A stretch of 61,632 nucleotides of DNA, from the IMG/VR virus record IMGVR_UViG_3300049783_001456, positions 1 to 61,632 of that record; one strand, 5' to 3'. The stretch comes from a virus. Its lineage: Duplodnaviria; Caudoviricetes. Positions within the stretch are counted from its first letter, which is position 1, and each line of letters opens with the position of its first letter. The notes below the pieces were generated by a model. It ran no database searches and was not told the DNA's origin. It saw nothing but the letters and a program-made list of their open reading frames with translations. Positions 9,532 through 42,401 of the stretch are shown piece after piece. The position numbers were made by a program, and so were the translations under genes.

Positions 9532-9619
9532 TTCCTGTCTAGGGTAGCTTTCCAGGAACCGTTGCACTATGATGGTTGTTACTGGCCAACGGGGTCGGTA
9601 ACAACCAAGGGAGTAAGAC
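9531..9619 (+). promoter_or_regulatory. Composite promoter-hairpin-RBS element
   Basis: GTTCCTG..GGGTAGCTTTC..CAGGAAC, TATGAT, N7, ACTGGCC-AACGG-GGTCGGT, AAGGGAG. Confidence 0.8.
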
Positions 9620-9928
9620 ATGATAGTCAACCAGTCCGCTGCATACTCGGCAATGACACCAGTACTCGAGCAGATCCGTGAAGACGCTGTCGAAATGAAG
9701 CGGATGCGGGTCAACGTGCGCAACCTCCTCCCTGGCGACATGTTTGTCGGCAGCGGGAAGGTCGTCCGTCAGATGTTTGACCACATCTTCGGCGAAGACC
9801 TTTTCGAGAAAGCCACCCTCCAGCCCGGTCGGGTGCTCGTCCAGTTCGGCCAGGTCACCGGCCTAAGCGTCGTCAACGGCGACGACCTCCACTGCGTCGA
9901 GATCTTCCGCCCCGTGCAAGAATCATGA
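9620..9928 (+). CDS. Hypothetical early protein
   Basis: ATG directly after the element RBS. Confidence 0.7.
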   Translation: MIVNQSAAYSAMTPVLEQIREDAVEMKRMRVNVRNLLPGDMFVGSGKVVRQMFDHIFGEDLFEKATLQPGRVLVQFGQVTGLSVVNGDDLHCVEIFRPVQES

Positions 9929-10092
9929 AGCGCAAGTGCGTGTCGTGCAGTGGTCGGGGTTGGCACCCAGTCCAGTTCTTCACCCCCGAATACGGATATC
10001 AGATACTCGAGGACTCCTGCCTCGACTGCTCCGGAGCGGGAGACCTGGTTTGTGAGGCAGAGGGTTCTATCGAAATGGCGCTGGTCCGATGA
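9925..10092 (+). CDS. Small DnaJ-type zinc-finger-like protein (CxxCxGxG twice)
   Basis: Manual translation MKRKCVSCSGRGW...SCLDCSGAG; ATGA overlap. Confidence 0.55.
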   Translation: MKRKCVSCSGRGWHPVQFFTPEYGYQILEDSCLDCSGAGDLVCEAEGSIEMALVR

Positions 10093-10330
10093 TCCACTCA
10101 CACGTCCTAGACAACGGCACTGAGGTGCTTGTTTCCGAAAGCCTGGGCTGCTGCGAAGAATACTCTCCGGTCGGAGTGCTCTACTTCCGTGGTGGTGTTG
10201 GTAGGTGCACCCAGTGCGCTCTCCGCCTCGGTTGGTTGGACGAACCACTACGGTAACGTCAGCGGTTCCTCCCCCTACTGCTCGGTCATCCCCACACCCT
10301 GAAACACGGAGTGGGGATGATCTCGTTTTC

Positions 10331-10409
10331 AGGGTAGCTTTCTACCAGGAACTAGAGTATGATGATTCGTACCGGCCAACGGGGTCGGCAACTATCAAGG
10401 AGTTCTCCA
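10331..10409 (+). promoter_or_regulatory. Composite promoter-hairpin-RBS element
   Basis: AGGGTAGCTTT, TATGAT, N7, ACCGGCC-AACGG-GGTCGG, AAGGAG. Confidence 0.75.
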
Positions 10410-10643: not shown

Positions 10644-10775
10644 ACCGGGCTGTTCGTCTCAGAGTAGCTCTGCTCATAGCAGCTGCACGCTTCCCTGAGA
10701 TGGACGCCTCTCGGTCCTTCCAGCGTAGTCCTACGCAATCCTCGCAGTAGCAGCGTCGGGCGTCGGGGTTGTGAC

Positions 10776-11540: not shown

Positions 11541-11720
11541 TCAAGACCTCTTGTGCGGGTGGGGTCGGGTGCCAACCCAACAGAGGACTACGTCCCACAG
11601 GACCCTGAGCTTGTTTCTCCCCACGCCGTGGCTGTTGCCGCAGCATGGGGAACTCTGTAGGACCCACCCGTGGGGGAGGCCTCCTGCGGCACCCCAGTCT
11701 TTCCAGTTCATCTTGTTCAT
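11541..11720 (-). CDS. Small hypothetical protein, probably leaderless
   Basis: GGGGTAG...GGGG-TAGGCT-N7-ATG; 59-aa ORF translated by hand. Confidence 0.45.
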   Translation of the reverse strand: MNKMNWKDWGAAGGLPHGWVLQSSPCCGNSHGVGRNKLRVLWDVVLCWVGTRPHPHKRS

Positions 11721-11764
11721 AGCCTACAGCCTACCCCACGCCAACTGAGAAACTACCCCAACCA

Positions 11765-12472: not shown

Positions 12473-12474
12473 TT

Positions 12475-14395: not shown

Positions 14396-14470
14396 GGTCC
14401 GTACCCTACTCTACAAAATACTTCCTGGTTGGGGTAGTGTTCCAGGATGTGTTGCGCTATCATGATGTAC

Positions 14471-14701
14471 ATGGCCAACACAAACCTCCTCCTCAACTTC
14501 ACGCTCACCGAAATCCAGGACCTCAAACTCCTCACTCCGCTCTCGGCAGCTGGGCAGATCCTGGTCCGTAACGGCTTCAAGCTGCCAAGCGTCTCTGATG
14601 AATGGCTTCACGCTATGGCTGACACGGCAAACGCTAGCACTGAGTCCTCCGTCAAGGCAGCGCTCGAGGCTATCAAGGCGCATCACCCAGCCTTCAGCTG
14701 A
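14471..14701 (+). CDS. Hypothetical protein, leaderless, driven by a copy of the composite element
   Basis: GGGGTAGTGTTCCAGGA...TATCAT-GATGTAC-ATG. Confidence 0.65.
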   Translation: MANTNLLLNFTLTEIQDLKLLTPLSAAGQILVRNGFKLPSVSDEWLHAMADTANASTESSVKAALEAIKAHHPAFS

Positions 14702-16220: not shown

Positions 16221-16232
16221 CACCACATTTCC

Positions 16233-20697: not shown

Positions 20698-20741
20698 GAA
20701 CGACCCCCACCGCTTTCATGGGCAGGCAGTGGGGGTCGTTC
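20698..20741 (+). terminator. Hairpin, probable terminator
   Basis: GAACGACCCCCAC / GTGGGGGTCGTTC 13-bp stem after the membrane-protein genes. Confidence 0.55.
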
Positions 20742-20931
20742 GCCGTTTCGAGCTCAGTACAAGAAAGTTCCTGCTTGGGGTAGGTTTAGCAGGAACTAGA
20801 AGGTAAGATGATTGTGGTGCTGATAGACTGATCGTAGAAATACTTCTTGCTAGGGGTAGCTTTCCAGGATGTGTTGCGGTATCATGATGTACATAGCCAA
20901 CGGGGCTATCACCGAGCAAGGGAGCAAGACC

Positions 20932-21237
20932 ATGGAAGCCAAGATAAATGCGACCGTCTGGGATACCGAGCACACGGGCAGGACCCGCAAAGTCATCGCC
21001 GACGTGCACGAGGCCTTCGAGCTCGACCTCGGAGAATTCCTGATATCGTCTTTCCAAGGGTTCATCACTATCGGAAGGTTCACAGGGCGCACACGCCGGT
21101 TCTGGCACCACGCCTGCCCGACGATCGAGCGTTTCGAGGTAGATACCTTCGCCACCACCGAGGGTGTAATCATGGGACGCAAGGGCATGCGCCTCGCCGG
21201 CACCTTGGCCATCCGCCCTGAAAATACTTCCTGCTAG
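20932..21237 (+). CDS. Hypothetical early cassette protein
   Basis: ATG after the element RBS (the ORF track start lies inside the repeat). Confidence 0.7.
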   Translation: MEAKINATVWDTEHTGRTRKVIADVHEAFELDLGEFLISSFQGFITIGRFTGRTRRFWHHACPTIERFEVDTFATTEGVIMGRKGMRLAGTLAIRPENTSC

Positions 21238-21314
21238 AGGTAGCTTTCCAGGATGTGTTGCGGTATCATGATATACATAGCCAACGGGGCTATCACCTAA
21301 CAAGGAGCAAAGCC

Positions 21315-21476
21315 ATGAAGTTCAAAGTCGGAGATCGCCTCTTCCGTGAATATTCGGTGAAAAATTACGTCTTGATGTCAACCCACGTTGATGCCTACGG
21401 CAGCGTCTCGGTGCTTTCCATGGGTGCGTTTGAAATCGTCCCGCTGGAAGGTCTTCAAGTTCGCCCGGTCCACTGA
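21315..21476 (+). CDS. Small beta-rich protein, paralog of 21877..22056
   Basis: MKFKVGDRLF...STHVDAYGSVSV; ATG after the element. Confidence 0.7.
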   Translation: MKFKVGDRLFREYSVKNYVLMSTHVDAYGSVSVLSMGAFEIVPLEGLQVRPVH

Positions 21477-21579
21477 GAAACATCCTGGAAAGTTGCCTTT
21501 CGGGGTAGCTTTCCAGGATGGGTTGCGCTATCATGATGTACATAGCCAACGGGGCTGTCAACTAGCAAGGAGAAACACC

Positions 21580-21768
21580 ATGAACGAGAAATGCGAATTC
21601 TGCAAGCGGACTCTCACGCCCGACCTGAGCCCGGGATGGTTCTACTACCGGTCCGAGATCGGGGCCACCGAGCCGGTCGAGCACATCGGAGCCACCGAGC
21701 ACGTTGCCTGCCGTAGCTGCCTCGAGGAGAACTTCGGGCACCGCCCAGAGGCCATCCTCGAAGTCTGA
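21580..21768 (+). CDS. Small CxxC...CxxC zinc-binding protein
   Basis: CEFC...CRSC; ATG after the element. Confidence 0.7.
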   Translation: MNEKCEFCKRTLTPDLSPGWFYYRSEIGATEPVEHIGATEHVACRSCLEENFGHRPEAILEV

Positions 21769-21876
21769 TAGAAAGTTCCTGGGAAGTTTGCCCTCTGAGG
21801 TAGCTTTCCAGGAACCTACCGACTATACTCAACTCAGCTGGCCAACGGGGCCAGCCACTAGCAAGGAGAGACCAAC

Positions 21877-22056
21877 ATGGGAACCAACCACGGTGACGAT
21901 CAGATGATCGCCGGGGACAAGTTCTGGCACAACAACTCGATGAAGCCGGTTGAGCTCGCCTCGACTTTCGTCGACACCTACGGACGGGTCGCAGTCATCG
22001 CCGCCAGCGGAGTCTTGCTACTCGTCCACCTCGGAGAGTTGGAGCCGGCATCGTGA
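21877..22056 (+). CDS. Small beta-rich protein, paralog of 21315..21476
   Basis: Manual translation MGTNHGDDQMIAGDKFW...STFVDTYGRVAV. Confidence 0.65.
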   Translation: MGTNHGDDQMIAGDKFWHNNSMKPVELASTFVDTYGRVAVIAASGVLLLVHLGELEPAS

Positions 22057-22424
22057 GGTACCTCTACCGCCTGCTCTCGATCGCTGGGACGTTCAAGGCT
22101 GCCCGGCGAGGCCCAGGTTCCCTCGGACGGAGACAGGGACGTAGGGTAGCGAATCGGCACTTCAACCGCTGGCTGCGGAAGGTGCTGAAGCCGTGAACGT
22201 CTTCTTCGGTATCTGCTCTATCTACTCTGGTGTCTGGTTCTTTACCCAACGCACCCACTGGGTACACGCCTTCATGGGTGTCCTGTTCATCTTGTCGGGA
22301 GCGCTGTTCATCCTGCCGTCGGTAATTTCTTGAATACTTCTTGGTTGGGGTAGCTTTTCAGGAACCAGCCCGCTATCATGATGTACATAGCCAACGGGGC
22401 TATCACCTAGCAAGGAGCCAGACC

Positions 22425-22691
22425 ATGAACGCACCGCAGATCCCCGGCACAACAGAATGCAACACCTGCTACGGCACCACGACAATCGACCAGGGTGGCG
22501 CAGAGATCAACTGCCCGGACTGCCCGGTAGCAGAGAACTTCGAAGTAACGACCGTATGGGAGAACGTCTCCGGTCGCGAGTTCACCCGCACTAAGAGCTA
22601 CCGGGCAGCCTGGGTCGCCGACGCTATGGACCTTGCCCTTGGCGACATGCCCGAGTCCTGCAGCGAAATTGTCGATCAGTACCTGGCCTGA
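22425..22691 (+). CDS. Small zinc-ribbon-containing protein
   Basis: CNTCYG...CPDC; ATG after the element. Confidence 0.7.
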   Translation: MNAPQIPGTTECNTCYGTTTIDQGGAEINCPDCPVAENFEVTTVWENVSGREFTRTKSYRAAWVADAMDLALGDMPESCSEIVDQYLA

Positions 22692-22794
22692 GGAAGTTTC
22701 AAAATACTTCTTGGTTGGGGTAGCTTTCCAGGAACCAGCCCGCTATCATGATGTACATAGCCAACGGGGCTATCACCTACCAAGGAGAACAGCC

Positions 22795-22935
22795 ATGACG
22801 AAGAAGCCAGCAATTGACCCCAAGAACCCACTGACCTGGGAGCGCAGCCTTCACGGCAAGAGCACTTGCCCCACCTGCGGTGGCAAGGGCATGCGCCATA
22901 TCCCGGGCTGGGTTGCACGCCACGTCAACCACTGA
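22795..22935 (+). CDS. Small C2H2-like protein
   Basis: CPTC...H..H; ATG after the element. Confidence 0.65.
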   Translation: MTKKPAIDPKNPLTWERSLHGKSTCPTCGGKGMRHIPGWVARHVNH

Positions 22936-22946
22936 GCTCGAACAGC

Positions 22947-22976
22947 CCGGAGGAGGGGCTCAGTTCCCTCCTCCGG
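22947..22976 (+). terminator. GC-rich hairpin (terminator or processing site)
   Basis: CCGGAGGAGGG / CCCTCCTCCGG 11-bp stem. Confidence 0.5.
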
Positions 22977-23028
22977 TCCCGTAACAACTTCCCAGCCCAG
23001 TAGGGCCACAACCACAAGGAGCAACACC

Positions 23029-23232
23029 GTGAACGCAACAGACCAGATCAGCAGCGACTACCGCGAGTTGATCGAAGGATCCAACCTCGACTGGAAGGTC
23101 GCCCAGTACGTCAATCTGATAGCCAAGGCGTGCGACCACAGTTTCAACGAGGTCAAGGCAGCCGCCATCCGCGAGATCGGAATCACCCAGCACGGGCAGG
23201 AGGAGTTCGACACAGCCTGCGATCGCTACTGA
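23029..23232 (+). CDS. Hypothetical protein
   Basis: AAGGAG RBS, GTG start. Confidence 0.65.
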   Translation: MNATDQISSDYRELIEGSNLDWKVAQYVNLIAKACDHSFNEVKAAAIREIGITQHGQEEFDTACDRY

Positions 23233-23352
23233 GCTCGGAACCCCAACCGGGAAGTTTCAAAATACTTCTTGGTTGGGGTAGCTTTCCCGCACCGGTTGAG
23301 CTATCATGATGTACATAGCCAACGGGGCTATCACCTAACAGGGAGAACCGCA

Positions 23353-23532
23353 ATGAACGCAACAGACATCCTTATCGAAAACTTCGGATATGGAAAAGAC
23401 CTCTCGACGGTCACCCTCGCCGAGATCGAAGACGCCTTCACTTCCGCAGGGTACAGCGAGGAAGACGCCCAAGAAGAAGCGGCCATGCAGGACGGGCGAA
23501 TCCTCCCCCGCAAGATCCGGATCCACCGATGA
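23353..23532 (+). CDS. Small acidic protein
   Basis: ATG after the element. Confidence 0.65.
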   Translation: MNATDILIENFGYGKDLSTVTLAEIEDAFTSAGYSEEDAQEEAAMQDGRILPRKIRIHR

Positions 23533-24239
23533 GCCTCGAAGCCACCATCGCCAAGCTGCTCGCCAAGGCAGAGGGAACCACCAACCAGCACGAGGCAGAA
23601 GCCTTCATGGCCAAGGCCGAGGAGATGATGCTGAAGAACGGCATCGACCGAGCTGCCGCCGAAGCCCACCTGCCGGGACACCGTCGGGAAGAGATCGTCA
23701 CGGTCCGCTGGCGCATCAAGAACGGCCATGGGTACGCCTTGGCCATGGAAGACATCGCCCACGCCATGGCTCCGAACTTCTCTATCAAGTCCTTCCAGAC
23801 CGTCATGGACGACGGCAGCCGGATCATTTGGTACGTCGGCCACGAGAGCGATGTCAAGCAGGCAGAGGAGCTTGCCCAGTCCCTTATCGCCCAGAGCCGT
23901 ACACAGGCGCTGCATTGGTGGAAGACCGAAGGCAAGCAGGATTGCCCAGGGTACACCGACAACGATGCGTACATCGCTCGCCGCCAGTTCATCTCTTCGT
24001 TCGGCTTCGGGGCAGGGGCACGCCTTCGGGAGACACGCAGCCGTGTCGTCGAGGAATCCGACCCCGGCACTTCCCTCATGCTCGTTGACCGTAAGAAACT
24101 GGTCAACACGTGGGTTGACGAGAACATGAACGTCGGCAAGGCACGCCGGACCAACCCCCACAGCGGGAGCGACTCCGCAGCACGAGCAGGACGCTCGGCA
24201 GGCCGTGAAGCGGTCGGAACCAAGAAGGTGACACGATGA
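23529..24239 (+). CDS. DUF2786-domain protein
   Basis: IAKLLAKAEGTTNQHEAEAFMAKAEEMMLKNGID N-terminal signature. Confidence 0.8.
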   Translation: MSLEATIAKLLAKAEGTTNQHEAEAFMAKAEEMMLKNGIDRAAAEAHLPGHRREEIVTVRWRIKNGHGYALAMEDIAHAMAPNFSIKSFQTVMDDGSRIIWYVGHESDVKQAEELAQSLIAQSRTQALHWWKTEGKQDCPGYTDNDAYIARRQFISSFGFGAGARLRETRSRVVEESDPGTSLMLVDRKKLVNTWVDENMNVGKARRTNPHSGSDSAARAGRSAGREAVGTKKVTR

Positions 24240-24580
24240 TATCAAGCAAGAAGATCGAGCCAGGTCTCTACGAAACGGAAGACGGCCACAGGATCGAGAG
24301 CGTCGAGCACCGGACCGGGGAAGTTGTCAATGGGTGGCTACTCACATATTCAGGGGACGACGAGCCGGAAGATCACGTGTACGAGACCAAGGCTTCAGCC
24401 TTGTCCCAGCTCGACGACAGCGTCCCGCTGGAGTGGCCAACGTGGACGTGCACCGCGAAGGGTTGCGACTACTCGAGCCAACAGCCTCCAGGCGTGTTGG
24501 CGATGGAACATCTTTGCGGCAAAGGGAAGCGCTCGACAAAGCTGAAGAAGGAAGAAGTCGATGGGTACGACCTAATCTGA
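24236..24580 (+). CDS. Two-domain hypothetical protein
   Basis: N-half resembles 35973..36161; C-half resembles 12475..12609. Confidence 0.65.
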   Translation: MISSKKIEPGLYETEDGHRIESVEHRTGEVVNGWLLTYSGDDEPEDHVYETKASALSQLDDSVPLEWPTWTCTAKGCDYSSQQPPGVLAMEHLCGKGKRSTKLKKEEVDGYDLI

Positions 24581-24673
24581 AGAAACTTCCTGATTGGGGT
24601 AGCTTTCCAGCTACCGGTCCGCTATCATGATGTACATAGCCAACGGGGCTATCAACTAGCAAGGAGCAACACA

Positions 24674-24913
24674 ATGAACGCAGATGATATTCGCCGCACC
24701 ATCCAAATCATTACTCAAGACTCTCTGATAGATTCTGCAAGCTGCCAGGTTCCAACAGCCTGCAACCTGGCAGAAGCAGGCGCCAGCCGTCGGCAGCTTG
24801 ACAACGCCATCCAGAAGCTGGGTCTCGACGACACCCAGTGGTCCAAGATGTTTCGCCAGGTGTTTGACAACGCAATAAAGGCAGCAGCAGCCCACGCAGG
24901 TGATGACCAATGA
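24674..24913 (+). CDS. Hypothetical protein
   Basis: ATG after the element. Confidence 0.65.
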   Translation: MNADDIRRTIQIITQDSLIDSASCQVPTACNLAEAGASRRQLDNAIQKLGLDDTQWSKMFRQVFDNAIKAAAAHAGDDQ

Positions 24914-25067
24914 GAAGCCGTTACAAGTACCGCAGGCCATTGCCACTGGCACCAACGCCTGAACCCTTGTTCACACGGGGCGAGCGGGCAGCCTTGGTGG
25001 GCATTGCCCTGTTCGTGGCCTACCTGACAGTGCACGTCATCGCCGCAATGGCAACCGGGAACCTGTC

Positions 25068-25403
25068 ATGAGCACCTTCGGGAATCCCCAAGGCCCACGC
25101 CAACACCCAGGGCACCTTCACGATTCTGTGTGCCATGTGGTGGGGTGCCCCGAGGGGATGTTTAAGGGTGAAGACCCCATCGCACCTGTCGTGAAGACCT
25201 ACGGAAAGTTGAGCGCCGAGATCAACACCGAAGACGAAGACTTCAAGGTGTTCTGCAGAGGCTGGGATGCCGCTGTTCGGTGCCACTCTATAGCAGCCCA
25301 CGAACGCAACGAGCGCCGTGACCTCGACTCGTCTACCTACTCCATGGCCCAGGAAGCCCAGCTGTGGGGGTTCTACACTGGCCAGATCTCGATCCCGAAA
25401 TGA
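25068..25403 (+). CDS. Hypothetical protein
   Basis: ORF in the early-gene run. Confidence 0.5.
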   Translation: MSTFGNPQGPRQHPGHLHDSVCHVVGCPEGMFKGEDPIAPVVKTYGKLSAEINTEDEDFKVFCRGWDAAVRCHSIAAHERNERRDLDSSTYSMAQEAQLWGFYTGQISIPK

Positions 25404-25638
25404 GCCGGAGCGCAGCCAGTCAAGCAGCAGCAAGGTATGCGAACCTCAAGCGTGTTCGCCGCAACAAGATGAACATCTGCGAAGTCTGCCTCCTCTGGGT
25501 CTACACCGACCAGAAGAGCACTTGGATGATCCTGCGAGGGGACGCCATCCGAATCCACGAAGAATGTCGCCCGGTCTCCTAGAGGCTGGGGTATGCTCTA
25601 CCAGAGGCCAACAAGGCCCACGAACAGAAGGGAAAAGA

Positions 25639-26273: not shown

Positions 26274-26340
26274 GTCAATCTCGTGGGGTAGGCTCCACAT
26301 CAAGCGCCAACGAGGCGCACCAAATCGAACAGGAGAAAGT

Positions 26341-29583: not shown

Positions 29584-30231
29584 ATGAAAGTGACTGAGCC
29601 AGGACCACCGAGGCGGATCTACGGGTTCACCCCGTGGGGGAGACCGATATTCGAGGACCCAACAGCAGAACCCAAGGAGCCCAGGATGATCGGACGACAC
29701 CCGTTCCAACCATCGCAGGAGTACCCGATGATATGTGGCGTCTGCAACAAAACGATGGCGCGGCACACCTACGACGAATCTCAGGAGCCGACTCGCCCGA
29801 CCGTAGATACGAGGCCTGACACCGGCACAGGTGACCCAATCCCCTGGATCCGCCACCGACCGACAGTCGATGAGTATTACCTCGGGATCGCCCGAGCAGT
29901 AGCAGCTCGAGCTGAGTGCAGTCGTAGGCAGGTTGGCGCTGTCATCGTCCGGGACCAGTCCATCATGTCTACAGGTTTCAACGGTGCGCCTCCAGGAGAG
30001 CCGAGCTGTCTAGACGGCGCATGCCCAAGGGCACTCAGCGGTGTAGCACCTGGCACTGGATACGCTTCTAGCGGCTGCGTGGCTGTGCACGCTGAAGCCA
30101 ACGCCATCATCCGTGCAGGACGCGAGAGGTGCCTTGGAGCGACGCTCTACGTCACCTCCGAGTGCTGCGACCTGTGCGCCCCGTTGGTGCGTGCTGCTGG
30201 GATAACTAGGGTGGTGACACCTTTGGGGTAG
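29584..30231 (+). CDS. dCMP deaminase with an N-terminal extension
   Basis: CSRRQVGAVI, GFNGAP, HAEANAI, CCDLC. Confidence 0.9.
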   Translation: MKVTEPGPPRRIYGFTPWGRPIFEDPTAEPKEPRMIGRHPFQPSQEYPMICGVCNKTMARHTYDESQEPTRPTVDTRPDTGTGDPIPWIRHRPTVDEYYLGIARAVAARAECSRRQVGAVIVRDQSIMSTGFNGAPPGEPSCLDGACPRALSGVAPGTGYASSGCVAVHAEANAIIRAGRERCLGATLYVTSECCDLCAPLVRAAGITRVVTPLG

Positions 30232-30309
30232 CGTAATCGAATTCTTTGGGGTACTATGAGTTTCCGAAACAACGTACACACGTAAACCAGAACCAACAGG
30301 AGAAACAAA

Positions 30310-30744
30310 ATGCAGATCACGATCGACACCAACAACCTCTCGGAGATGGACATCAACATGCTGTCCTTCCTCGCCGACCAGGGTGAGGTGCAGAACAATG
30401 TCGAACCCGATGAGGAAGAGCTCGAGCTCGAGATTGACGAAGACGACACTGTCGACCGAGCAGATGAAGCTGCAGCCGCCAAGAAGGAAGCAGCCGCTGC
30501 CAAGAAGGCTGCTGCCGCCAAGAAGGAAGCTGCCAAGAAGGCTGAAGAAGCGACCGAGGAAGAAGCGACCGACGACGATGCACCGACCATGTCGGATGCA
30601 GTTGCTGCCGCCACGAAGCTCGTGTCAAGCGGGCAGGCTGCCCTGGTCAAGACAGCACTAGCCAAAGTCGAAGTGAAGCGAGTTAGCGAGATGGACGTTG
30701 CGGACATTCCGACGTTCCTCGCAGCTCTCGAAGAAGGTGAATGA
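30310..30744 (+). CDS. Acidic, Ala/Lys-rich protein of the PolA-Cas4-SSB module
   Basis: AGGAG RBS; directly upstream of the DUF2800-like gene. Confidence 0.7.
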   Translation: MQITIDTNNLSEMDINMLSFLADQGEVQNNVEPDEEELELEIDEDDTVDRADEAAAAKKEAAAAKKAAAAKKEAAKKAEEATEEEATDDDAPTMSDAVAAATKLVSSGQAALVKTALAKVEVKRVSEMDVADIPTFLAALEEGE

Positions 30745-33355: not shown

Positions 33356-33357
33356 AG

Positions 33358-33450
33358 AAATACTTCCTGGTTGGGGTAGCTTTCCAGCAACCCACCCGCT
33401 ATCATGATGTACATAGCCAACGGGGCTATCACCTACCAAGGAGAACCGCA
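33358..33450 (+). promoter_or_regulatory. Composite promoter-hairpin-RBS element
   Basis: Near-consensus copy. Confidence 0.85.
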
Positions 33451-33831
33451 ATGACGAACACCTACCGCACACACGGAAGCCTCACCGGCGATGTTAACGA
33501 CTTCGAAACGGCGAGAGACTACCTCCGTGAAAGCGACATGACGCAGTACGTCAAGCATGCTTCCTTCAAGGGTCTCGAGGACATCGTCCACAACATCCAG
33601 TGGAACCTTCTGGGGGTAGACACCTGGGAAGTCATCGTCATTACCAACCGGGAGCTGACGGCAGAAGAATCCACCGGGGTCAGCGAGTGGATCTCCGGCC
33701 AGAACAGCGACGGCTTGGGTGAGGGGTTCGAGCAGCAAGAGTTCGCCGAGCACGAGGACCTCGACGGGGAATACTCGATGAGCTCGTTCGACTGGCACAC
33801 CAACAAAGCCATCTTGACCCTCGTCAAGTAA
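33451..33831 (+). CDS. Hypothetical protein with a WISGQNSDGLGEGFEQ motif
   Basis: Cassette inserted before PolA; ATG after the element. Confidence 0.7.
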   Translation: MTNTYRTHGSLTGDVNDFETARDYLRESDMTQYVKHASFKGLEDIVHNIQWNLLGVDTWEVIVITNRELTAEESTGVSEWISGQNSDGLGEGFEQQEFAEHEDLDGEYSMSSFDWHTNKAILTLVK

Positions 33832-33841: not shown

Positions 33842-33871
33842 CGGGGCAGGGGCCATAGCGCTCCTGCCCCG
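33842..33871 (+). terminator. Hairpin closing the cassette before PolA
   Basis: CGGGGCAGG...CCTGCCCCG. Confidence 0.45.
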
Positions 33872-35720: not shown

Positions 35721-35781
35721 TTATCGAGAAACATCCTGGTTGGGGTAGTTTTGCAGGATGTGGTGGGGTATACTCATAACT

Positions 35782-35976
35782 ATGAGCTTCCCCACACGCA
35801 CCTACTCCACTAACGGCCACACGGTCGAAATCACCAAGACCGCTTGTGAAGCAGTACCGAGCCAGGCCAGCTACAAGGTCAAGGTCGACGGCCAATTCGC
35901 CGGTCAGCCTGGAACCTTGAAGCGTGCCAAGGAATTCGCAGCCCTGAAGATCCGCATGATCGAAGCAGCCGCATGA
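35782..35976 (+). CDS. Hypothetical protein, leaderless
   Basis: ACATCCTG..GGGGTAG..CAGGATGT, then TATACT-N7-ATG. Confidence 0.65.
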   Translation: MSFPTRTYSTNGHTVEITKTACEAVPSQASYKVKVDGQFAGQPGTLKRAKEFAALKIRMIEAAA

Positions 35977-36161: not shown

Positions 36162-36471
36162 CCAACTCAAGATCCGAAACTCAACGAAGAAGAACGGGAG
36201 CGTTCTATCGGAGGTCAAGTTTCCGCAGGGGTTGCCGTTCGAACATAGGAACCTGGGTAGGGTCTCCGTGAGCCGGGTTCGTATCTGGTCTCGTCCAGAT
36301 GGGAGGATGCACCTGGGTTCTATGAACATCGGAAACGGCAACGAACAGAAGTGGGTCGAGACTTCTCTGTTCGAATTCGACCCTCGGCAACTCATTGACG
36401 TCCTGGCCCCCCACGTACTCGAATCTGTAACTAAGTACAAGCCAGGTCATTTCGAAGGGAACGACGCATGA
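36148..36471 (+). CDS. Hypothetical protein
   Basis: Coupled to the downstream modification locus; start uncertain. Confidence 0.5.
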   Translation: MPVRSQLKIRNSTKKNGSVLSEVKFPQGLPFEHRNLGRVSVSRVRIWSRPDGRMHLGSMNIGNGNEQKWVETSLFEFDPRQLIDVLAPHVLESVTKYKPGHFEGNDA

Positions 36472-37508
36472 CTGATTGGCGACTCCCAGAGAACAAAGAG
36501 CACGCCTTCTTGGCTTTCTACTGGTTCCATCTCGAGCACCGCAGCCACCCAGGAATGGTGTACTCCTTCTTGCCGGCAATCGCCGACGCCTTCGACCTCG
36601 ACGACGACCAGCGTGCCTGGCTCGTGTGGCTGAACGGCAACACTCAGAACGCAGTGACTTCGCTGATGTTGCTCGAGGTTGCCCCGACGCCCAACGACTG
36701 GAAGAAGGCAGTCGACTTCTGGAACGAGAACTTCAAGAAGCTTGAGTGGGACACTGACCGTCGCCACCAGAAGTCCAAGTTCGGCGAGGCCACCGAGGCC
36801 TGGTTCATGGACTTCGGATACCGACCATCAACCGACTGGCTCAAAGCTGGCGCTCGAGGCTGGAGCCATACGTGGAAGCACGCCTTCAGCCAGCCGTACA
36901 TGGGCAGGCTCTCTAGCTGGTCGATGATCGAGTACGCACGTATCCTCCTGGGGCAAGATATCCCCGACTCCGACACGTGGATGCTCGAGGACAAGAGCGG
37001 TTCCAAGTCGCACCGGAATGGCATCGCCGTCGTCAAGGGATATGACGCCACTTACTGGGATGCCGACACCCCCGACTTGCTCGGCATAGTCGGCGAGCTC
37101 GAGGACTATGCAGACCACCTACTGGCTCGCGTCGACCACCCGGACGCCGGACGCCTCACCATGGAGTCGGCACTGTGTACGTTCAAGTCCTGGCACAAGC
37201 CGAACCGACGGTATCCGAACGTGTACGCCGACATGATGTACACCCGTATCAAGAAGGCAGAGGCTCGGTTCGACCGTACCTTCGACCTCCTCTGGGAGAC
37301 CCGAAAGTACGACCTCCCCGAGTACCTTCGACTCGAAGACCAGTCGACCGACCCAGGCGTTGCCGGGGTCAAACAGAACTGGTTCCTCGAGACTGGTGAG
37401 GTTCACTACCTCCACCACGTATCCGATCTCTTCGAGCCATCTGGCTTGGAGCTACAAATCATTGCTGGCGACAAGCTGGCCCCACGAAAGGACCAAACAT
37501 GGAGCTGA
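36468..37508 (+). CDS. Amino acid:DNA transferase (AADT, aGPT-Pplase2 family)
   Basis: WDTDRRHQK, MGRLSSWSMIEY, SKSHRNG, MESALCTFKSWHKPNRRYPNVYADM; clustered with 5hmU genes. Confidence 0.78.
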   Translation: MTDWRLPENKEHAFLAFYWFHLEHRSHPGMVYSFLPAIADAFDLDDDQRAWLVWLNGNTQNAVTSLMLLEVAPTPNDWKKAVDFWNENFKKLEWDTDRRHQKSKFGEATEAWFMDFGYRPSTDWLKAGARGWSHTWKHAFSQPYMGRLSSWSMIEYARILLGQDIPDSDTWMLEDKSGSKSHRNGIAVVKGYDATYWDADTPDLLGIVGELEDYADHLLARVDHPDAGRLTMESALCTFKSWHKPNRRYPNVYADMMYTRIKKAEARFDRTFDLLWETRKYDLPEYLRLEDQSTDPGVAGVKQNWFLETGEVHYLHHVSDLFEPSGLELQIIAGDKLAPRKDQTWS

Positions 37509-38221
37509 CCATCTGCGAGAAGTGGACCCTCTACTGCCCGGAACCAACCGAGGAAGGGCAGTGGTTCCTAGACTACGTGCTGCGTTCACCCAGAGATGCA
37601 GGCATTCACCTCACAGCAGGGTTGAACGCATACCAAGCGCTGTCCGAATTGGGTGTCAAACCTGATACAGCAATGGAGTACTTCGGCGGTATGGGTGCCC
37701 AGTCCGGGATGATCCAACACTTCTTCTCAGTACGTTCGCACCTGGTCCTCGACAACAGCGAGGAGGCAGTCAGGCACATCGAGTCGAACATGGAAGGGTA
37801 CGACGTCGTCGCTAGTTGCGAAGACAGCTACGACCCCGCCAGCTACCGGCCTGCCGACATCGTCGGGTTGGACTTCGGCGACCTCACCGTTTGGAAGACA
37901 CGGGAAGGAGAGAAGCATCGTGAGCTCCTCGACCGTGTCTTCGCCGGCAAGCCGAAAGGTGTTGTTCTGACAGACGTCGCCTGCCGGTATCTGCACCTGC
38001 ATCGGGAACGCTACGAAACGCTCCTCGGGGCTGGCACTTGTGCCGACTATCCAACGTATCTCGAGGCGCTCGCCGACCGGCTCGAGGAGATCTACGGATA
38101 CGTCATGGTGGCTGGGTTCCACCACCGTTGGTCTACCGTCATGGCGCTACGACCTGAAGGCGTGCGAGGCGAGTTCATCCCGACGCCGGAGTCGCCTGTC
38201 GGACTTGTGGTCACTCGATGA
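37499..38221 (+). CDS. Class I SAM-dependent transferase-like protein (putative methyltransferase)
   Basis: Motif I AMEYFGGMG, acidic end of beta2 (LVLDNS), EDSY, ADIVGLDF at beta4. Confidence 0.55.
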   Translation: MELTICEKWTLYCPEPTEEGQWFLDYVLRSPRDAGIHLTAGLNAYQALSELGVKPDTAMEYFGGMGAQSGMIQHFFSVRSHLVLDNSEEAVRHIESNMEGYDVVASCEDSYDPASYRPADIVGLDFGDLTVWKTREGEKHRELLDRVFAGKPKGVVLTDVACRYLHLHRERYETLLGAGTCADYPTYLEALADRLEEIYGYVMVAGFHHRWSTVMALRPEGVRGEFIPTPESPVGLVVTR

Positions 38222-39096
38222 AGACAAAGATCCACACAGAGCTCACGCCGGTAGAGTCCCGTGGTGGGCGTCTATGGAAACGTGAAGATGCACATCGCAA
38301 CGACTATGGGGTGAACGGTAGCAAGTACCGGGCATGTCGCCACCTACTGACCCAGGCCATCTTGGATGGGTACACACACGTCGTCACTGCCCAAGCCACA
38401 GCCAGCCCGCAGTCTTCGATCTGTGCTACGTTGTGTGAGGAGCTGGGTCTGGAATGCACTGTCGTTGTCGGAGCCAGTAAACCACACACCGCAATCAAGC
38501 ATCCGAACATCGCTATCGCTATGGCAGCAGGAGCCAACCTCGACACCGGTTGCCGAGTGGCCTACAACGGGACTCTTCAACCCTACGCTTCGAGGCTCGC
38601 TGAGGAGCTCGGAGCATATCAGCTGCCCTACGCCATCACCTACCCAACGAGCGGGACGAGAGAGGGACTCGAGGCCTTCCTCGCAGTAGGTGGAGCGCAG
38701 GTGGTGAACCTACCCGACAGCGTCGAACGTCTCGTCATCCCGTTCGGCTCAGCAAACACAGCTTGCGGGGTGCTCTACGGGTTGAACGAGAAACGACCAG
38801 CCAACCTCAAAGACATCTACTTGATGGAGATCGGACCGAGCCGAAGAGATTGGGCGATGGAGCGACTAGAGATAGTGGGTAAGGAGTTCGAGTTGACCAG
38901 CGTCAACACTCACTTCATCACGCTCCACGAGGTGTGGGCCAGCTACAGCGACCAGATGCCGGAGACGATGGAAGATATCGTGTTCCACCCATGGTACGAA
39001 GGGAAGATGATTCGGTGGCTCAATCTCGTTCAGCCTGATTGGTGGAACCTCCAAGACGAGACCACCTGCTTCTGGATCGTAGGTGGTCCATCGTGA
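38218..39096 (+). CDS. Fold-type II PLP-dependent enzyme
   Basis: LTPVE...WKREDA...NGSKYR PLP lysine; LVIPFGSANT; FHPWYEGK. Confidence 0.82.
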   Translation: MKTKIHTELTPVESRGGRLWKREDAHRNDYGVNGSKYRACRHLLTQAILDGYTHVVTAQATASPQSSICATLCEELGLECTVVVGASKPHTAIKHPNIAIAMAAGANLDTGCRVAYNGTLQPYASRLAEELGAYQLPYAITYPTSGTREGLEAFLAVGGAQVVNLPDSVERLVIPFGSANTACGVLYGLNEKRPANLKDIYLMEIGPSRRDWAMERLEIVGKEFELTSVNTHFITLHEVWASYSDQMPETMEDIVFHPWYEGKMIRWLNLVQPDWWNLQDETTCFWIVGGPS

Positions 39097-39272
39097 TCGA
39101 GTTCGAAGCCCAGTTCAAGAGCGACTGTGGCAACTGCGAGTTCCCGGTAGAGAAAGGTCAAGCTGCAACCTTTGAGGACAACGAAGCTGTACACATCAAG
39201 TGCCCCAAGGTTCGCCCAGCGTGCCCTGATTGCTGGCTGGTGCACGGCACGGCTCAGGAGTTCTGCGAATGA
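39093..39272 (+). CDS. Small Cys-rich zinc-binding protein
   Basis: CGNC...HIKC...CPDC...H; GTGA and ATGA overlaps on both sides. Confidence 0.55.
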   Translation: MIEFEAQFKSDCGNCEFPVEKGQAATFEDNEAVHIKCPKVRPACPDCWLVHGTAQEFCE

Positions 39273-40162
39273 GGACTGATGACTTCCTCGACTTCGTCGT
39301 CGAGCGCCACCGCATCTGGGAACAGAGGCAGGCAGGCACTGCCCAACCTTGGACCGAAGACCCTGTGCTCGCCAACCGCAAGTTCACCAACGTCTTCCGG
39401 GTGCTCGATCCAGGCACTCAGTTCCTCTTGAAGGACCTCTTTGAGCCCGACCTCAACCCTCGGGACACCTTGATGCGAGCGTTCCTCTACCGGCATACAG
39501 GCAAGGTAGAGACGTGGGAGCTGCTGGACCTCATGGTCGGCGAATATCCGACAGTCCCGATGCTCGAAGACGTCCGTAAGATCTGGCATGGGTACCGGGA
39601 CACGAAGGCACCGTTCTTCACGAATGCGTACCTCGTCTATCCGCAATCTTCCACACCCGGTACAGACAAGCTCGACTCGATCGTCGACTTGACAAAGCGG
39701 CTGTTCACTCCTGGTTCGCCAGACGACATCATGCCGGAATGGCTCTCTGCTCAGACCCAGAAGGAGCGGTTCAAGATCCTTCGCCGCAACAAGGGCGTCG
39801 GCGACTTCATGTCAATGCAGATACTGACTGACTGGGGCTACCAATGTGGCGAAGATCGGGAAGACGAATTCCTCGTGCCTGGCCCTGGCTCTATCAAGGG
39901 AGCGAAGGCTCTCGACCCCGACGCCAAGACCATGGAAGTGGTGCGGCGTGTCGTGAAAGAAGTTCGTGGGGTAGCTTCTTCACCTCGGTTGGGGTACCGT
40001 TCACCAAGTCTCATGGACATCGGCTCTAATCTCCTCTGCGAGTGGAGCAAGTACGTGAGGTTCAGAGGGCAATCGTTGCCCAAGACCAACTACATCCCGG
40101 CTCACCCAGGTCCGCAACCGGACCCAGTGCTGCCGAGCTATTACACAGAGGAACTGATATGA
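39269..40162 (+). CDS. 5-hmdU DNA kinase helical domain (aGPT-Pplase1 family)
   Basis: FLDFVVERHRIW...PWTEDPVLANRKFTNVFRVLD; GVGDFMSMQILTD; GPGSIKG; LCEWSKY. Confidence 0.82.
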   Translation: MRTDDFLDFVVERHRIWEQRQAGTAQPWTEDPVLANRKFTNVFRVLDPGTQFLLKDLFEPDLNPRDTLMRAFLYRHTGKVETWELLDLMVGEYPTVPMLEDVRKIWHGYRDTKAPFFTNAYLVYPQSSTPGTDKLDSIVDLTKRLFTPGSPDDIMPEWLSAQTQKERFKILRRNKGVGDFMSMQILTDWGYQCGEDREDEFLVPGPGSIKGAKALDPDAKTMEVVRRVVKEVRGVASSPRLGYRSPSLMDIGSNLLCEWSKYVRFRGQSLPKTNYIPAHPGPQPDPVLPSYYTEELI

Positions 40163-40410
40163 ACAAAGCGCAAGAGCTGGACCTGCTTATGGTAGACCCA
40201 CCGCCAGGGTCGCACCTCAAGATGAAATTGGTGTACCCAGGCAGCCCGAAGTCCTATGTCTACGTGGCCATCTCTCTAGGCACTCTTTGGTACCTCAGCG
40301 GTATCAGCGGGTCATTCCCGTCTTGGGCTTCCCTGGTTAACTGGATGCAAAACAAGAACGCCGAAGTAATTTCAATCCAAACCGCAACGTCCTGGGAGGA
40401 CCTACTGTAA
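40159..40410 (+). CDS. Hypothetical protein
   Basis: GAGGA RBS; ATGA overlap. Confidence 0.55.
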   Translation: MNKAQELDLLMVDPPPGSHLKMKLVYPGSPKSYVYVAISLGTLWYLSGISGSFPSWASLVNWMQNKNAEVISIQTATSWEDLL

Positions 40411-41822
40411 TGAACCACAACTACCAATTCAACAACGTCAACGACGCATTGCCTCGACTTATGGAGGCTCTGCTGGGAGACGGTGCGGAGTTCCCTTCTC
40501 GTGCCGGCAACACCAAAGAGTTGATGCACGTCGGTATCACCCTCCGGAAGCCTTGGCAGCGGGAGATCGCACTGCCTGGTCGCAAAGCCAACATCGCTGC
40601 GCAGATCATGGAGACCATGTGGGTGTTGTCGGGTCGCAACGACGTCGCAGGTCTCAGCCATTACCTGCCTCGAGCCATCGACTTCAGTGACGATGGCTTG
40701 GAGTGGCGGGCAGGCTACGGTCCTCGCCTGCGAAACTTCCACGGTGTTGACCAGCTTGCCTACCTCGTTGACACGATCGCTGACTCGCCTGGTTCACGGC
40801 AAGCGGTAGCGTCCATTTGGGACCCGACCGTCGACACTGAGCCCGGCAAAGACATCGCCTGCAACAACTGGATCTCGCTCAGTGCCAGGGACGGCAAGCT
40901 GGACGTTCACGTAGGTCTCCGCTCAAACGACGCCATGTGGGGTTGGAGCGGTATCAACGCTTTCGAATGGTCGGTACTACAGGAAGTAGTGGCACACATC
41001 GCAGGCCTGGAAATCGGATCACTCCACTTCTCCACAACCAGCTTCCACTTGTATGAGCAACACTGGGATAAGGCAAGTTCCCTCTCCAAGCTCAACGGCA
41101 ACTTCATGTACGGTGACTCCCCAAGGTTCAACCTGAGTGGGTACAACGTGCTGAGCCGTTTCGACGAGCTTGCCCAGGAGTGGTTCGCACTCGAAGAAGA
41201 CATCCGCTTCGGCCGGGAGATCGGCAACGCTGTCAACGACTTCCCCGAGCCGATGTTGCGGTCGTGGTTGCGGGTTCTTCAGTGGTACTGGTCAGGCGAG
41301 AGCATCTACCTGCAGCCTCTCCGACGATCAAACCTTTACCACGCTTGCCTGGAAGGTGTCAAGCCTGCCGGCAAGCACCAGGAAGAGCAGCTCGAGATCG
41401 TAGAACCCTACGACCGCATCGACGGTGAGTTCCTCGACTTCGTCAACCGACTGCACACCCAGAAGCACCTGGCATACGGTGACAGCTGGAAGCGTCGAGG
41501 CGAGTATATGATCCTCGCTAACATCGCCCGCAAGGTCGACCGCATCGAGAGCGGCAAGGACACTCCGGACGAGACCCAGGCCGACACCGCACAAGACCTG
41601 ATGGTCTACCTCGCCAAATACAAGTCTTGGCTCAGCGGTGGAGAAGGCAACCCAGACGAGGTCCGCCTCATCCTCCGGGGACAAGAGAGCCTCTACTTCT
41701 CTACGGTAGATATCGTGAGCTTGTTCGATAACCTAGAGAACGCTCACGGACCAGCCTTCAAGATGAGCGTGGTGGACAAACTACTGAGCCAAGCCTACAC
41801 CTTCGCCCTGTCGTTGTGGTGA
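40410..41822 (+). CDS. Thymidylate synthase-family enzyme (probable dUMP hydroxymethylase) fused to a nucleotide-modification-associated helical domain
   Basis: YGPRLR, SRQAV, catalytic DIACNN, RSNDAMWG..INA with Asn (uracil specificity), SFHLY; C-terminal KHLAYGDSWK...ARKVDRI...DTAQDLMVY. Confidence 0.82.
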   Translation: MNHNYQFNNVNDALPRLMEALLGDGAEFPSRAGNTKELMHVGITLRKPWQREIALPGRKANIAAQIMETMWVLSGRNDVAGLSHYLPRAIDFSDDGLEWRAGYGPRLRNFHGVDQLAYLVDTIADSPGSRQAVASIWDPTVDTEPGKDIACNNWISLSARDGKLDVHVGLRSNDAMWGWSGINAFEWSVLQEVVAHIAGLEIGSLHFSTTSFHLYEQHWDKASSLSKLNGNFMYGDSPRFNLSGYNVLSRFDELAQEWFALEEDIRFGREIGNAVNDFPEPMLRSWLRVLQWYWSGESIYLQPLRRSNLYHACLEGVKPAGKHQEEQLEIVEPYDRIDGEFLDFVNRLHTQKHLAYGDSWKRRGEYMILANIARKVDRIESGKDTPDETQADTAQDLMVYLAKYKSWLSGGEGNPDEVRLILRGQESLYFSTVDIVSLFDNLENAHGPAFKMSVVDKLLSQAYTFALSLW

Positions 41823-42331
41823 CCCGCTCCATCTACATCATCGGTGCGCCAGGCTCCGGCAAGTCGACGGCCATGGCCCAACTCCTCGAGGGTTGGGCCA
41901 TGGGTCCGTACACTCGTTGGCAGCGGGAGATCTATGGACACTATCTCGAGCACCCCGAGAGAGGACGAGGAGCGTACCTCGGTCACCTTCGCCCCGAGTT
42001 CCCCGGAACGGACGCTCTCTCCCTCTCAGCAGGTCCTCGAGCGGTTGAATGGCTCGACGCTCTCCCACTCCTTGGGCTTGATTGGGTTCTGGCCGAAGGT
42101 GCTCGCCTCGCTCACATGGGTTTCCTACTTGCTCTCAACGAAGCCACAGACCTGACAGTCGTGTATTTGGATGTGGACCCAGAGGTTGCTGCCCAGAGGC
42201 GAATCGACCGGGGTGGGAAACAGCTTTCTGAAAAGTTCTGCAAGACGATGACCACTAAGTCGGCCAACATCTACAAGGGTTGCAAGGAAGCAGGCATAAC
42301 TATCGTGAAGGATGTTCCTGCCTTGAGGTAG
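41816..42331 (+). CDS. P-loop nucleotide kinase (5hmU kinase-associated)
   Basis: IYIIGAPGSGKST, FPGTDALS, EGARL, RRIDRG. Confidence 0.8.
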   Translation: MVTRSIYIIGAPGSGKSTAMAQLLEGWAMGPYTRWQREIYGHYLEHPERGRGAYLGHLRPEFPGTDALSLSAGPRAVEWLDALPLLGLDWVLAEGARLAHMGFLLALNEATDLTVVYLDVDPEVAAQRRIDRGGKQLSEKFCKTMTTKSANIYKGCKEAGITIVKDVPALR

Positions 42332-42401
42332 CTTTCCAGGAACAGTTGGGGTAGTATGATTGTCACTGGCCACAAGGGCTAGCATCTACCAAGGAGCAAC
42401 C
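42314..42401 (+). promoter_or_regulatory. Divergent copy of the composite element
   Basis: GTTCCTG..GAGGTAGCTTTC..CAGGAAC, TAGTAT, N7, ACTGGCC-ACAAG-GGCTAG, AAGGAG. Confidence 0.7.

Follow-up and report, generated by a model that had tools for sequence, protein, structure and literature searches.

A conserved CC-AACRR-GG pentaloop hairpin with covarying stems in the repeated promoter cassettes of a myovirus-like phage

Hairpin copies in the phage genome

The window studied here, IMG/VR virus record IMGVR_UViG_3300049783_001456, is one complete virus record of 61,632 bases with a G+C content of 54-61% along its length. The phage is myovirus-like, with tail sheath, baseplate, tape-measure, head and terminase genes on the - strand, and its + strand carries, from about 20.8 to 43.8 kb, small genes without assigned function and then replication and nucleotide genes. 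Here we show that a hairpin with a conserved five-nucleotide loop, CC-AACRR-GG, is present at 14 places in this genome, each time shortly after the -10 box of a promoter unit. All 14 copies lie on the + strand, in the same sense as the downstream gene:

9581..9599, + strand, hairpin ACTGGCC-AACGG-GGTCGGT, 7 bp with two G.U pairs
10372..10388, + strand, hairpin CCGGCC-AACGG-GGTCGG, 6 bp with one G.U pair, starting at predicted +2
20893..20909, + strand, hairpin ATAGCC-AACGG-GGCTAT (main class), starting at predicted +1
21277..21293, + strand, hairpin of the main class
21542..21558, + strand, hairpin ATAGCC-AACGG-GGCTGT, a U.G variant of the main class
21837..21855, + strand, hairpin GCTGGCC-AACGG-GGCCAGC, 7 bp, -13.3 kcal/mol at 37 C
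22387..22403, + strand, hairpin of the main class
22757..22773, + strand, hairpin of the main class
23315..23331, + strand, hairpin of the main class
24636..24652, + strand, hairpin of the main class
25606..25618, + strand, hairpin GGCC-AACAA-GGCC, 4 bp, with an extended -10 (GGGGTATGCT) and without the GGTAGCTTT box
26304..26318, + strand, hairpin GCGCC-AACGA-GGCGC, 5 bp, with an extended -10 only
33413..33429, + strand, hairpin of the main class, ahead of gene 33451-33831
42366..42382, + strand, hairpin CTGGCC-ACAAG-GGCTAG, 6 bp with one G.U pair

The pattern CCAACRRGG occurred 20 times in the window (15 times on the + strand and 5 times on the - strand) as compared to 2.56 expected occurrences (standard deviation 1.51); the shuffle maximum was 6 and none of the 100 shuffles reached 20. 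Promoter-linked + strand hairpins made up 13 of the 20 matches, and the 14th copy, at 42366, was missed by the pattern because of its loop, ACAAG. The remaining seven matches were in coding sequence without promoter context (28968 and 53040 on the + strand; 17383, 17521, 30187, 35663 and 59351 on the - strand), and a 5-bp stem was possible only at 17521 among them. A conserved pentaloop hairpin of this kind had been proposed in a sequence-only reading of this DNA, and the enrichment together with the 14 promoter-linked copies bears the proposal out; all eight examples quoted there were found in place, except that the GCGCC copy starts at 26304 and not at 26303.

Each hairpin is built of an invariant top, GCC-AACRR-GGC, above a variable lower stem, and the total contiguous stem is 4-7 bp long (7 bp in two copies, 6 bp in 10, 5 bp in one and 4 bp in one). 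The loop was AACGG in 11 copies, with AACAA, AACGA and ACAAG in the others, and was AACGG or AACAG in related phages, so that its first base was always A. Among the 1,010 hairpins of at least 5 bp with a five-nucleotide loop found on both strands, AACGG was the commonest loop, and 11 of its 13 cases were the copies described here. Altogether there were eight distinct hairpin sequences in the window, the ATAGCC/GGCTAT form being identical in seven copies.

Covariation of the stem

In the 14 window copies, 84.6% of the stem cells were paired, four of the seven pairs had changed on both sides, and none of the 500 shuffles reached the covariation score. Slid controls, where the 3' partner was shifted by 1-3 columns, gave 13-36% pairing. 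When five units from related phages were added (19 rows), 80.5% of the cells were paired, with a score of 0.352 vs 0.161 and slid controls of 12-37%. The fourth pair from the loop was G-C in nine rows, A-U in eight, C-G in one and G.U in one, and pairs 5 and 6 also switched type. Next to the loop, the three GCC/GGC pairs varied by G.U or U.G alone, in three rows, with no change on both sides; pair 7 was formed in just two of the 19 rows. The covarying stems claimed earlier were thus confirmed. All six G.U cells inside the stems pair in the + sense only.

The Rfam database, suggested earlier as a check, gave 0 matches in the whole window at gathering thresholds, and at a permissive threshold the region 20700-26400 gave three chance-level matches (E 2.7-4.3), none of them on a hairpin. 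The hairpin is a candidate RNA motif missing from Rfam, with covariation sufficient to build a model. Other identities were tried and rejected: a small open reading frame through the hairpin (ATGATG...), the frame of which differs among copies and which is absent in 21837; an intrinsic terminator on either strand, as no U-run follows the hairpin; and pairing of the loop with 16S rRNA or the start region, for which merely 5-nt matches are conceivable.

The promoter cassette

The hairpin copies lie within a repeat unit of about 85-117 nt (repeat families D2, D4, D6 and D8). The order of elements is an upstream stem-loop, a GGGGTAGCTTT box at -35, the hexamer TANNNT, the hairpin, a C/A-rich linker, AAGGAG and ATG, with 16 nt between the -35 box and the hexamer, 7 nt between the hexamer and the hairpin, and 7-12 nt of linker. 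Full cassettes with the -35 box number 12, eight of which form an array. A covariance model (R1), built from the 19 units (14 from the window and five from relatives), recovered the 14 hairpin units at E values of 1e-19 to 1e-7 and also matched units with a promoter only, at 30224, 14430, 35741, 13783 (-), 11760 (-) and 39967. Of the 20 promoter-like units at E<0.1, 14 had the hairpin, three were leaderless and three were leadered without a hairpin. The array, the sister promoters and the sites of the -35 box are as follows:

20852..24676, + strand, array of eight full cassettes, each before a small gene without assigned function; R1 E 1e-19 to 3e-15; repeat families D2 and D4
20852-20934, 21236-21317, 21501-21582 and 21796-21879, + strand, array cassettes 1-4
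22346-22427, 22716-22797, 23274-23355 and 24595-24676, + strand, array cassettes 5-8
30224..30312, + strand, leadered sister promoter without the CC-AACRR-GG hairpin, found with R1
14430..14473, + strand, leaderless sister promoter: TATCAT, 7 nt, ATGGCCAAC, with ATG at 14471 and no hairpin
35741..35784, + strand, leaderless sister promoter: TATACT, 7 nt, ATG at 35782
11709..11760, - strand, leaderless sister promoter: TAGGCT, 7 nt, ATG at 11720
9542, 20854, 22718, 35743, 30226, 13781 (-), 11758 (-) and others, sites of the -35 box

Eight cassettes (family D2) are 66-100% identical across 117 nt. The copies at 25606 and 26304 have an extended -10 only (GGGGTAnnnT), no -35 box and no other similarity in their flanks, and the hairpin is nevertheless kept. 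Between 8 and 27 kb, neither sigma-70 consensus promoters (4 vs 5.5 expected) nor U-tract terminators (9 vs 12.9 expected) exceeded chance, and the cassette family therefore appears to be the main promoter type of this phage for its non-structural genes. The -35 box (TTGGGGTAGCTTT) is unlike TTGACA and nearly copies the extended -10 of the phage (TGGGGTAnnnT), lying upstream of that motif by exactly 23 nt. The units may be tandem promoters; otherwise, the -35 box would be read by a factor, for which the WhiB-like protein encoded by the phage at 19231-19668 (Pfam E 5e-20) is a candidate, as proteins of the WhiB-like family bind sigma region 4. An extra promoter-like unit at 20778-20850 (+), with a perfect 10-bp inverted repeat around the box, is located 76 nt ahead of array cassette 1 and precedes only a 4-codon frame.

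In 16 units of the window and in four relatives, stems of 6-18 bp precede or surround the -35 box. They stand directly after the stop codon of the preceding gene, often enclosing or abutting the box. Examples from the window are:

20766-20797, upstream stem-loop
21481-21520, upstream stem-loop, 18 bp
21775-21815, upstream stem-loop
23240-23279, upstream stem-loop
10284-10322, upstream stem-loop

Such stem-loops also occur in the related contigs L123 (18 bp), L124 (15 bp) and L125. Their sequences differ completely among copies and phages while the pairing is kept, and no U-run follows them. They are probably hairpins which form or protect the 3' end of the preceding message.

Predicted transcript start and leader

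The first paired base of the hairpin follows TANNNT after 7 nt in 10 of the 14 copies, after 8 nt in three and after 9 nt in one, in agreement with the distance of about 7-9 nt noted earlier. The three leaderless sister promoters have their ATG exactly 7 nt after TANNNT and lack a ribosome site. The unit at 14471 is a main-class cassette up to the 5' arm of the hairpin, with ATGGCCAAC where the others read ATAGCCAAC (ATAGCC to ATGGCC), and the frame from this ATG has a G+C content of 0.58/0.43/0.71 at codon positions 1/2/3, typical of the genes of this phage. Since the sister promoters place a leaderless ATG at the first base of the hairpin, we infer that the hairpin begins at +1 to +3 of the mRNA: if the three ATGs are leaderless, +1 would be its first paired base in 10 of the 14 copies, and +2 or +3 in the other four. 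With the start taken 7 nt after the hexamer, the predicted 5' untranslated region (UTR) is 38-40 nt long in 12 of the 14 copies, the exceptions being 25606 (34 nt) and 42366 (34 nt, or 37 nt with the hexamer TAGTAT, which keeps the 16-nt spacing). Minimum-energy folds of these leaders gave the hairpin with an open linker in 13 of the 14 copies. The earlier proposition that the hairpin forms the 5' end of the mRNA is thus anchored, as a prediction, by the three leaderless ATGs; that these messages are early is suggested by gene content.

Related phages

The same design was found in the contigs of five relatives (G001, L122, L123, L124 and L125), twice at orthologous genes. A pattern joining the -35 box and the loop picked out 12 IMG/VR stretches including one true relative, G001, a contig of 10,288 bp which is syntenic with 39.3-48.9 kb of the window at 66-83% nucleotide identity. 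At the place orthologous to the 42366 copy, G001 has a full cassette with the hairpin CTGGCC-AACGG-GGCCAG, i.e. a different stem and the canonical loop, as well as an additional promoter and gene. The hairpin stands at one of the three promoters of the cassette family in G001, and this unit is closer to the non-orthologous window unit 9530-9594 (81.5%) than to its positional partner.

A stricter pattern gave four true hits among five metagenome stretches (L122, L123, L124 and L125). These units (L122 and L124 having one in common) come from contigs of 64-68% G+C, and show the box, GGGGTAGTAT and, 8-11 nt downstream of the hexamer, GGCC-AACRG-GGCC. The unit of L125 (GGCC-AACGG-GGCC) precedes an ortholog (63% identity) of gene 33451 and so matches the window copy at 33413. 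A second unit of L122, which lies outside the search pattern, carries CTGGTC-AACGG-GGCCAG at a distance of just 7 nt from the -10 box, on its downstream side.

In the window, gene 33451-33831 is followed by a 9-bp hairpin at 33842-33871 (+) and then by the DNA polymerase gene, which begins with GTG. L125 has CTGGCC-ATCGG-GGCCAG in the corresponding position (about 723-750); this sequence is almost the same as the 5' hairpin and lies ahead of a ribosome site and GTG, and no -10 box is recognisable before it. In L124 (4,092 bp), HrcA-like, NAD-kinase-like and truncated RecN-like genes at 1-2790, named by reading their translations, adjoin the phage unit, and L122 has phage sequence at this junction; L124 is probably a chimeric low-coverage assembly, unsuitable for host inference.

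Other searches brought no further relatives. Megablast of 20800-26400 against GenBank phages gave no match, and IMG/VR loci chosen by their helicase had at most 34% identity, with nothing found by R1 in those 80 loci (best E 0.64). Searches of IMG/VR with the DNA polymerase and with an alignment of gene 33451 found no relatives, the exact 15-nt -35 box had 19 single-copy matches there, and a -10 pattern derived from the high-GC relatives had 0 matches. A pattern scan of 185,579 bacterial genomes gave only one match, in a Flavobacteriaceae metagenome-assembled genome of 36% GC, which we took as chance; since no match in these genomes was accepted, there is no sign of a prophage lifestyle, and the lineage appears narrow. 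A pattern of hairpin plus Shine-Dalgarno sequence (SD) had 101 matches in 100 IMG/VR stretches, mostly collagen-like Gly-Pro-Thr coding repeats or lone matches, one of them being G001. Promoter-proximal look-alikes in this set (L139, L223 and L140/L166/L178/L196, records G002-G006) have GGCC-AACRG-GGCC, a C/A-rich linker, AAGGAG or similar and a start codon. They come from unrelated viruses, two of which are classed as proviruses, and because there is one copy per record they are indistinguishable from the approximately 80 chance matches that we estimate.

Other features of the genome

The host is probably an actinobacterium, since the phage encodes a WhiB-like protein and the closest relatives of its primase in tblastn, at not more than 38% identity, were those of Brevibacterium, Microbacterium and Mycobacterium phages. 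A gene for a RecD-like helicase lies downstream of the hairpin copy at 26304. No tRNA gene was found in the whole window. A gene set for thymidine hypermodification is present at 36468-42331 (+), and a dCMP deaminase gene lies before it:

36468-37508, + strand, amino acid:DNA transferase, hypermodification set
38218-39096, + strand, protein like pyridoxal-phosphate enzymes, below the Pfam cut-off
39230-40162, + strand, 5-hydroxymethyldeoxyuridine (5-hmdU) DNA kinase, hypermodification set
40410-41822, + strand, thymidylate-synthase-like protein of 470 aa, hypermodification set
41816-42331, + strand, P-loop nucleotide kinase, hypermodification set
29584-30231, dCMP deaminase

Judged by these genes, the phage DNA probably carries modified thymidines, which, if present, would also occupy the T-containing promoter boxes. 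Repeats of another kind are found within structural genes on the - strand: collagen-like coding repeats with a 9-nt period at 7642-7974, inside a 756-aa tail protein (6122-8392); Gly-rich coding repeats at 3826-4444, within the gene at 3780-4664; and six tandem units of 132/144 nt at 44325-45186, within the gene at 44261-45211. Near-identical DNA was present in 12 runs labelled ice metagenome (0.39-0.97 of the sampled words), three of which may be where the record comes from; no RNA run matched the stretch 20800-26400. Contigs assembled from four DNA runs break at the cassette repeats, and their hairpins had no informative variants.

Proposed function of the hairpin

We favour, with a probability of roughly 0.45, a protective stem-loop at the 5' end of the mRNA whose invariant loop would also be the recognition site for a factor. 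The hairpin would form at the first 1-3 nt of the leadered mRNAs made from the phage's own promoter cassettes, and the paired 5' end would deny a single-stranded end to the enzymes of 5'-end-dependent decay (a pyrophosphohydrolase of the RppH type, RNase E and RNase J). The short, C/A-rich and G-poor linker would keep AAGGAG open, and the constant length of the leader would set the hairpin against the edge of a ribosome bound at the start. The invariant GCC-AACRR-GGC top may, in addition, be read by a factor which treats all these messages as one set; we infer such a factor because the invariant top exceeds what stability requires. 5'-end stem-loops protect bacterial mRNAs from 5'-end-dependent decay; a review (PMC3997798) lists ompA, papA and aprE and gives at least two unpaired 5' nucleotides as the requirement of RppH of B. 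subtilis. The 5' shield put forward in the sequence-only reading fits this account as far as the stem is concerned.

Several points weigh against the 5'-terminal stem-loop with a recognised loop. A pure shield leaves the invariant loop unexplained. The position of +1 is a prediction from promoter spacing, and the GGGGTAGCTT box at -35 resembles an extended -10; a start driven by this box would put the hairpin about 24 nt into the leader. The copy at 9581 extends to a 15-bp stem (9573-9607, z -6.6) using bases upstream of the predicted +1: the fold of 9566-9622 has -25.3 kcal/mol, and its stem takes in the eight bases that precede the predicted +1 and reaches right up to the ribosome site, so that an RNA or DNA form including bases upstream of +1 may be relevant there. 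This extension is absent from the similar G001 unit, the 5' arm being common to both. The unit of L124 has four unpaired bases ahead of its hairpin, a marginal arrangement for a 5' shield. The first unpaired cell past the stem is A.C or C.A in seven of the 19 rows, i.e. a wobble on the opposite strand, which weakens the call of the + strand; the earlier argument that G-U pairs point to RNA, presumably the active form, thus holds for the six wobbles inside the stem and less well just beyond it. Independent cases are few, as half of the copies (seven of 14) have one and the same sequence. The loop conservation in G001 and L122-L125 is partly by construction, because the patterns that found them required the loop; the cases free of this bias are the second unit of L122 and, in the window, the two copies without a box (25606 and 26304). 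Hairpin energies are modest at 37 C (-5.7 to -13.3 kcal/mol), and whole-UTR folding was unremarkable (z -0.2 to -2.7 in nine UTRs), so the structural case is carried by covariation and placement and not by energy. At 4 C the energies are -9.7 to -20.3 kcal/mol; should the phage live in the cold, stability would extend even to the GGCC hairpins of 4 bp (about -10 kcal/mol).

It is possible, though we consider it unlikely, that the hairpin is chiefly a protein-binding tag on nascent or mature RNA, which would control the whole set together, stability being secondary. Such a tag could act by anti-termination or anti-pausing, as lambda N does on boxB; other conceivable routes are repression of translation and a cleavage timed to the switch from early to late genes. 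The pattern of change in the hairpin is of the kind that this explanation predicts, with the loop and its three closing pairs invariant or wobble-only and the lower stem freely variable, and the top persists in the box-less cassettes at 25606 and 26304 and in the relatives of 64-68% GC. The 6-18 bp stem-loops directly upstream of each promoter could serve as barriers for read-through. Against this explanation, U-tract terminators are not in excess, Pfam gave neither an RNA-binding candidate nor an N-like arginine-rich protein among the 36 small or unassigned phage proteins, and 14 sites, one per promoter, with a loop that is not GNRA-like, are unlike the two nut sites of lambda. A narrower form of this thought, about which we are rather doubtful, is that the hairpin may be an RNA "address label", a dedicated phage protein or a hijacked host protein recognising the GCC-AACRR-GGC top on nearly all leadered non-structural messages. 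If so, the tagged messages could be spared from a phage-induced RNA shut-off, or the whole set could be switched off at the late transition, and the hairpin would be a new class of cis-regulatory RNA in actinobacteriophages, acting from the first nucleotides of the transcript.

A double-stranded DNA operator is improbable. In this explanation the conserved 11-13 bp would be bound, at +1 to +17, by a repressor or regulator which blocks or modulates RNA polymerase. The core is indeed asymmetric, conserved and always oriented with transcription at the promoters, its 17 bp are a typical size for an operator, and the protein encoded at 42991-43386 weakly resembles a helix-turn-helix family (HTH_3, E 3e-4, under the Pfam cut-off). 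The arms, however, covary rather than keep a half-site sequence, the conserved centre with free outer bases is the opposite of a dimeric operator, and the C-to-T and A-to-G changes in the 3' arm keep RNA pairing, as in all six in-stem wobbles. Moreover, no integrase or clear repressor was found among the phage proteins scanned, nor any prophage sign in the bacterial genomes searched.

Weakest, and in our view highly improbable, is a functionless passenger of a promoter cassette that spreads by duplication or gene conversion, the repeat being mainly a recombination point for the shuffling of small genes: the identity among the eight D2 cassettes, the G001 unit with its non-orthologous nearest neighbour and extra promoter and gene, the breaks of other samples' assemblies at the repeats and an analogous proposal for the promoter-early stem-loop (PeSL) cassettes of T4-like phages (PMC4122927) are in keeping with it. 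Against it, cassettes that have diverged and share no flank similarity still have the loop and a stem restored to pairing, the hairpin is present in phages of 58% as well as of 64-68% GC, and recombination accounts for the spread of the cassette and not for compensatory changes.

The gene regulation of actinobacteriophages is known mainly from a few temperate models, and early expression in uncultured lytic phages of these hosts is largely not. Four elements are united in the cassette described here: a stem-loop that probably closes the preceding message, a promoter of unusual type, a hairpin at what is predicted to be the first nucleotide, and a ribosome site left open. Should these messages be protected or tagged by the hairpin, as in the favoured explanation, it would be a simple natural example of standardised 5' ends for a class of phage genes, and could provide a portable expression part for actinobacteria, perhaps in the cold, and a handle on its reader protein.

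Comparison with known systems

No published description of the hairpin motif was found in open-access papers and bioRxiv. Its predicted position resembles that in the ompA, papA and aprE leaders, where a stem-loop 0-2 nt from the 5' end (predicted here for 13 of the 14 copies) is followed by an open ribosome site. Those leaders, however, need no particular loop and are single cases, one per gene, whereas here 14 promoters, and relatives of the phage, have one loop in common. A stem-loop is also present at the 5' end of the T7 gene 10 leader.

The boxB hairpin of lambda has a GNRA-like pentaloop (first base G, with a sheared G.A pair) on a stem of about 5 bp, and a linear boxA a few nucleotides upstream. 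Like the lambda nut and HK022 put RNAs, the present motif is a short promoter-proximal hairpin of putative early transcripts with a conserved pentaloop and a freely variable stem. The loop here is AACRR, beginning with A in every copy and not with G; a boxA is lacking and would have no room, because the hairpin starts at predicted +1 to +3; and there is one site per promoter (14) as compared to two per genome. With U-tract terminators not in excess either (9 vs 12.9 expected), membership in the boxB/nut class was rejected, and the earlier description of the motif as boxB-like is not supported.

Precedents for an operator are the stoperators of Cluster A mycobacteriophages and the conserved inverted repeats (CIR) of phiC31 with its early promoters, where repressors bind fixed DNA sites of temperate phages. 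The likeness is that a short, conserved and oriented site recurs many times in the non-structural regions of actinophages, at promoters or close to them, and the difference lies in the covarying arms and in the proteins scanned, none of which was an integrase or a clear repressor. The start-associated sequence (SAS, with its extended form ESAS) of Cluster K mycobacteriophages (Pope et al. 2011, PMC3203893) is a 13-bp motif (GGGATAGGAGCCC) at the ribosome-binding site or translation start, repeated 11-19 times in one orientation; about half of the copies have an imperfect upstream inverted repeat, the conserved arms of ESAS being 17 bp long. Both are short, oriented, repeated motifs ahead of some non-structural genes of actinobacteriophages. 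The present hairpin is instead found at the predicted start of the transcript, some 21 nt before the ATG, and its loop is conserved while its arms covary. An identity of the two was rejected, since the motif, its position and its pattern of conservation all differ from what is given there.

The closest analogue is found in T4-like phages, for which Arbiol et al. in 2010 reportedly dealt with PeSL and PmSL cassettes. As described by Comeau, Arbiol and Krisch (2014, PMC4122927), a PeSL cassette has one stem-loop before the promoter, -35/-10, SD and the start of a small variable gene, and is a site of gene exchange. The present units agree with that definition, being intergenic cassettes that recur across the variable, non-structural region of a myovirus-like genome and have an upstream stem-loop, a promoter, an SD and the start of a small gene. 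Our upstream stem-loops are like the PeSL stem-loop, and the relatives show signs of cassette-mediated exchange (the G001 unit, and the extra promoter and gene). The present host group is, however, probably actinobacterial, the GGGGTAGCTTT box at -35 is like neither a sigma-70 nor a Mot-box element, and downstream of the promoter there is, at predicted +1, another hairpin, whose pentaloop is invariant and which is absent from the PeSL description. The cassette is thus an analogue of PeSL with an added element, and not a member, the hairpin after the promoter being the new part. The motif is real and new in detail, a variant which combines a stem-loop at the predicted 5' end with a PeSL-like cassette.

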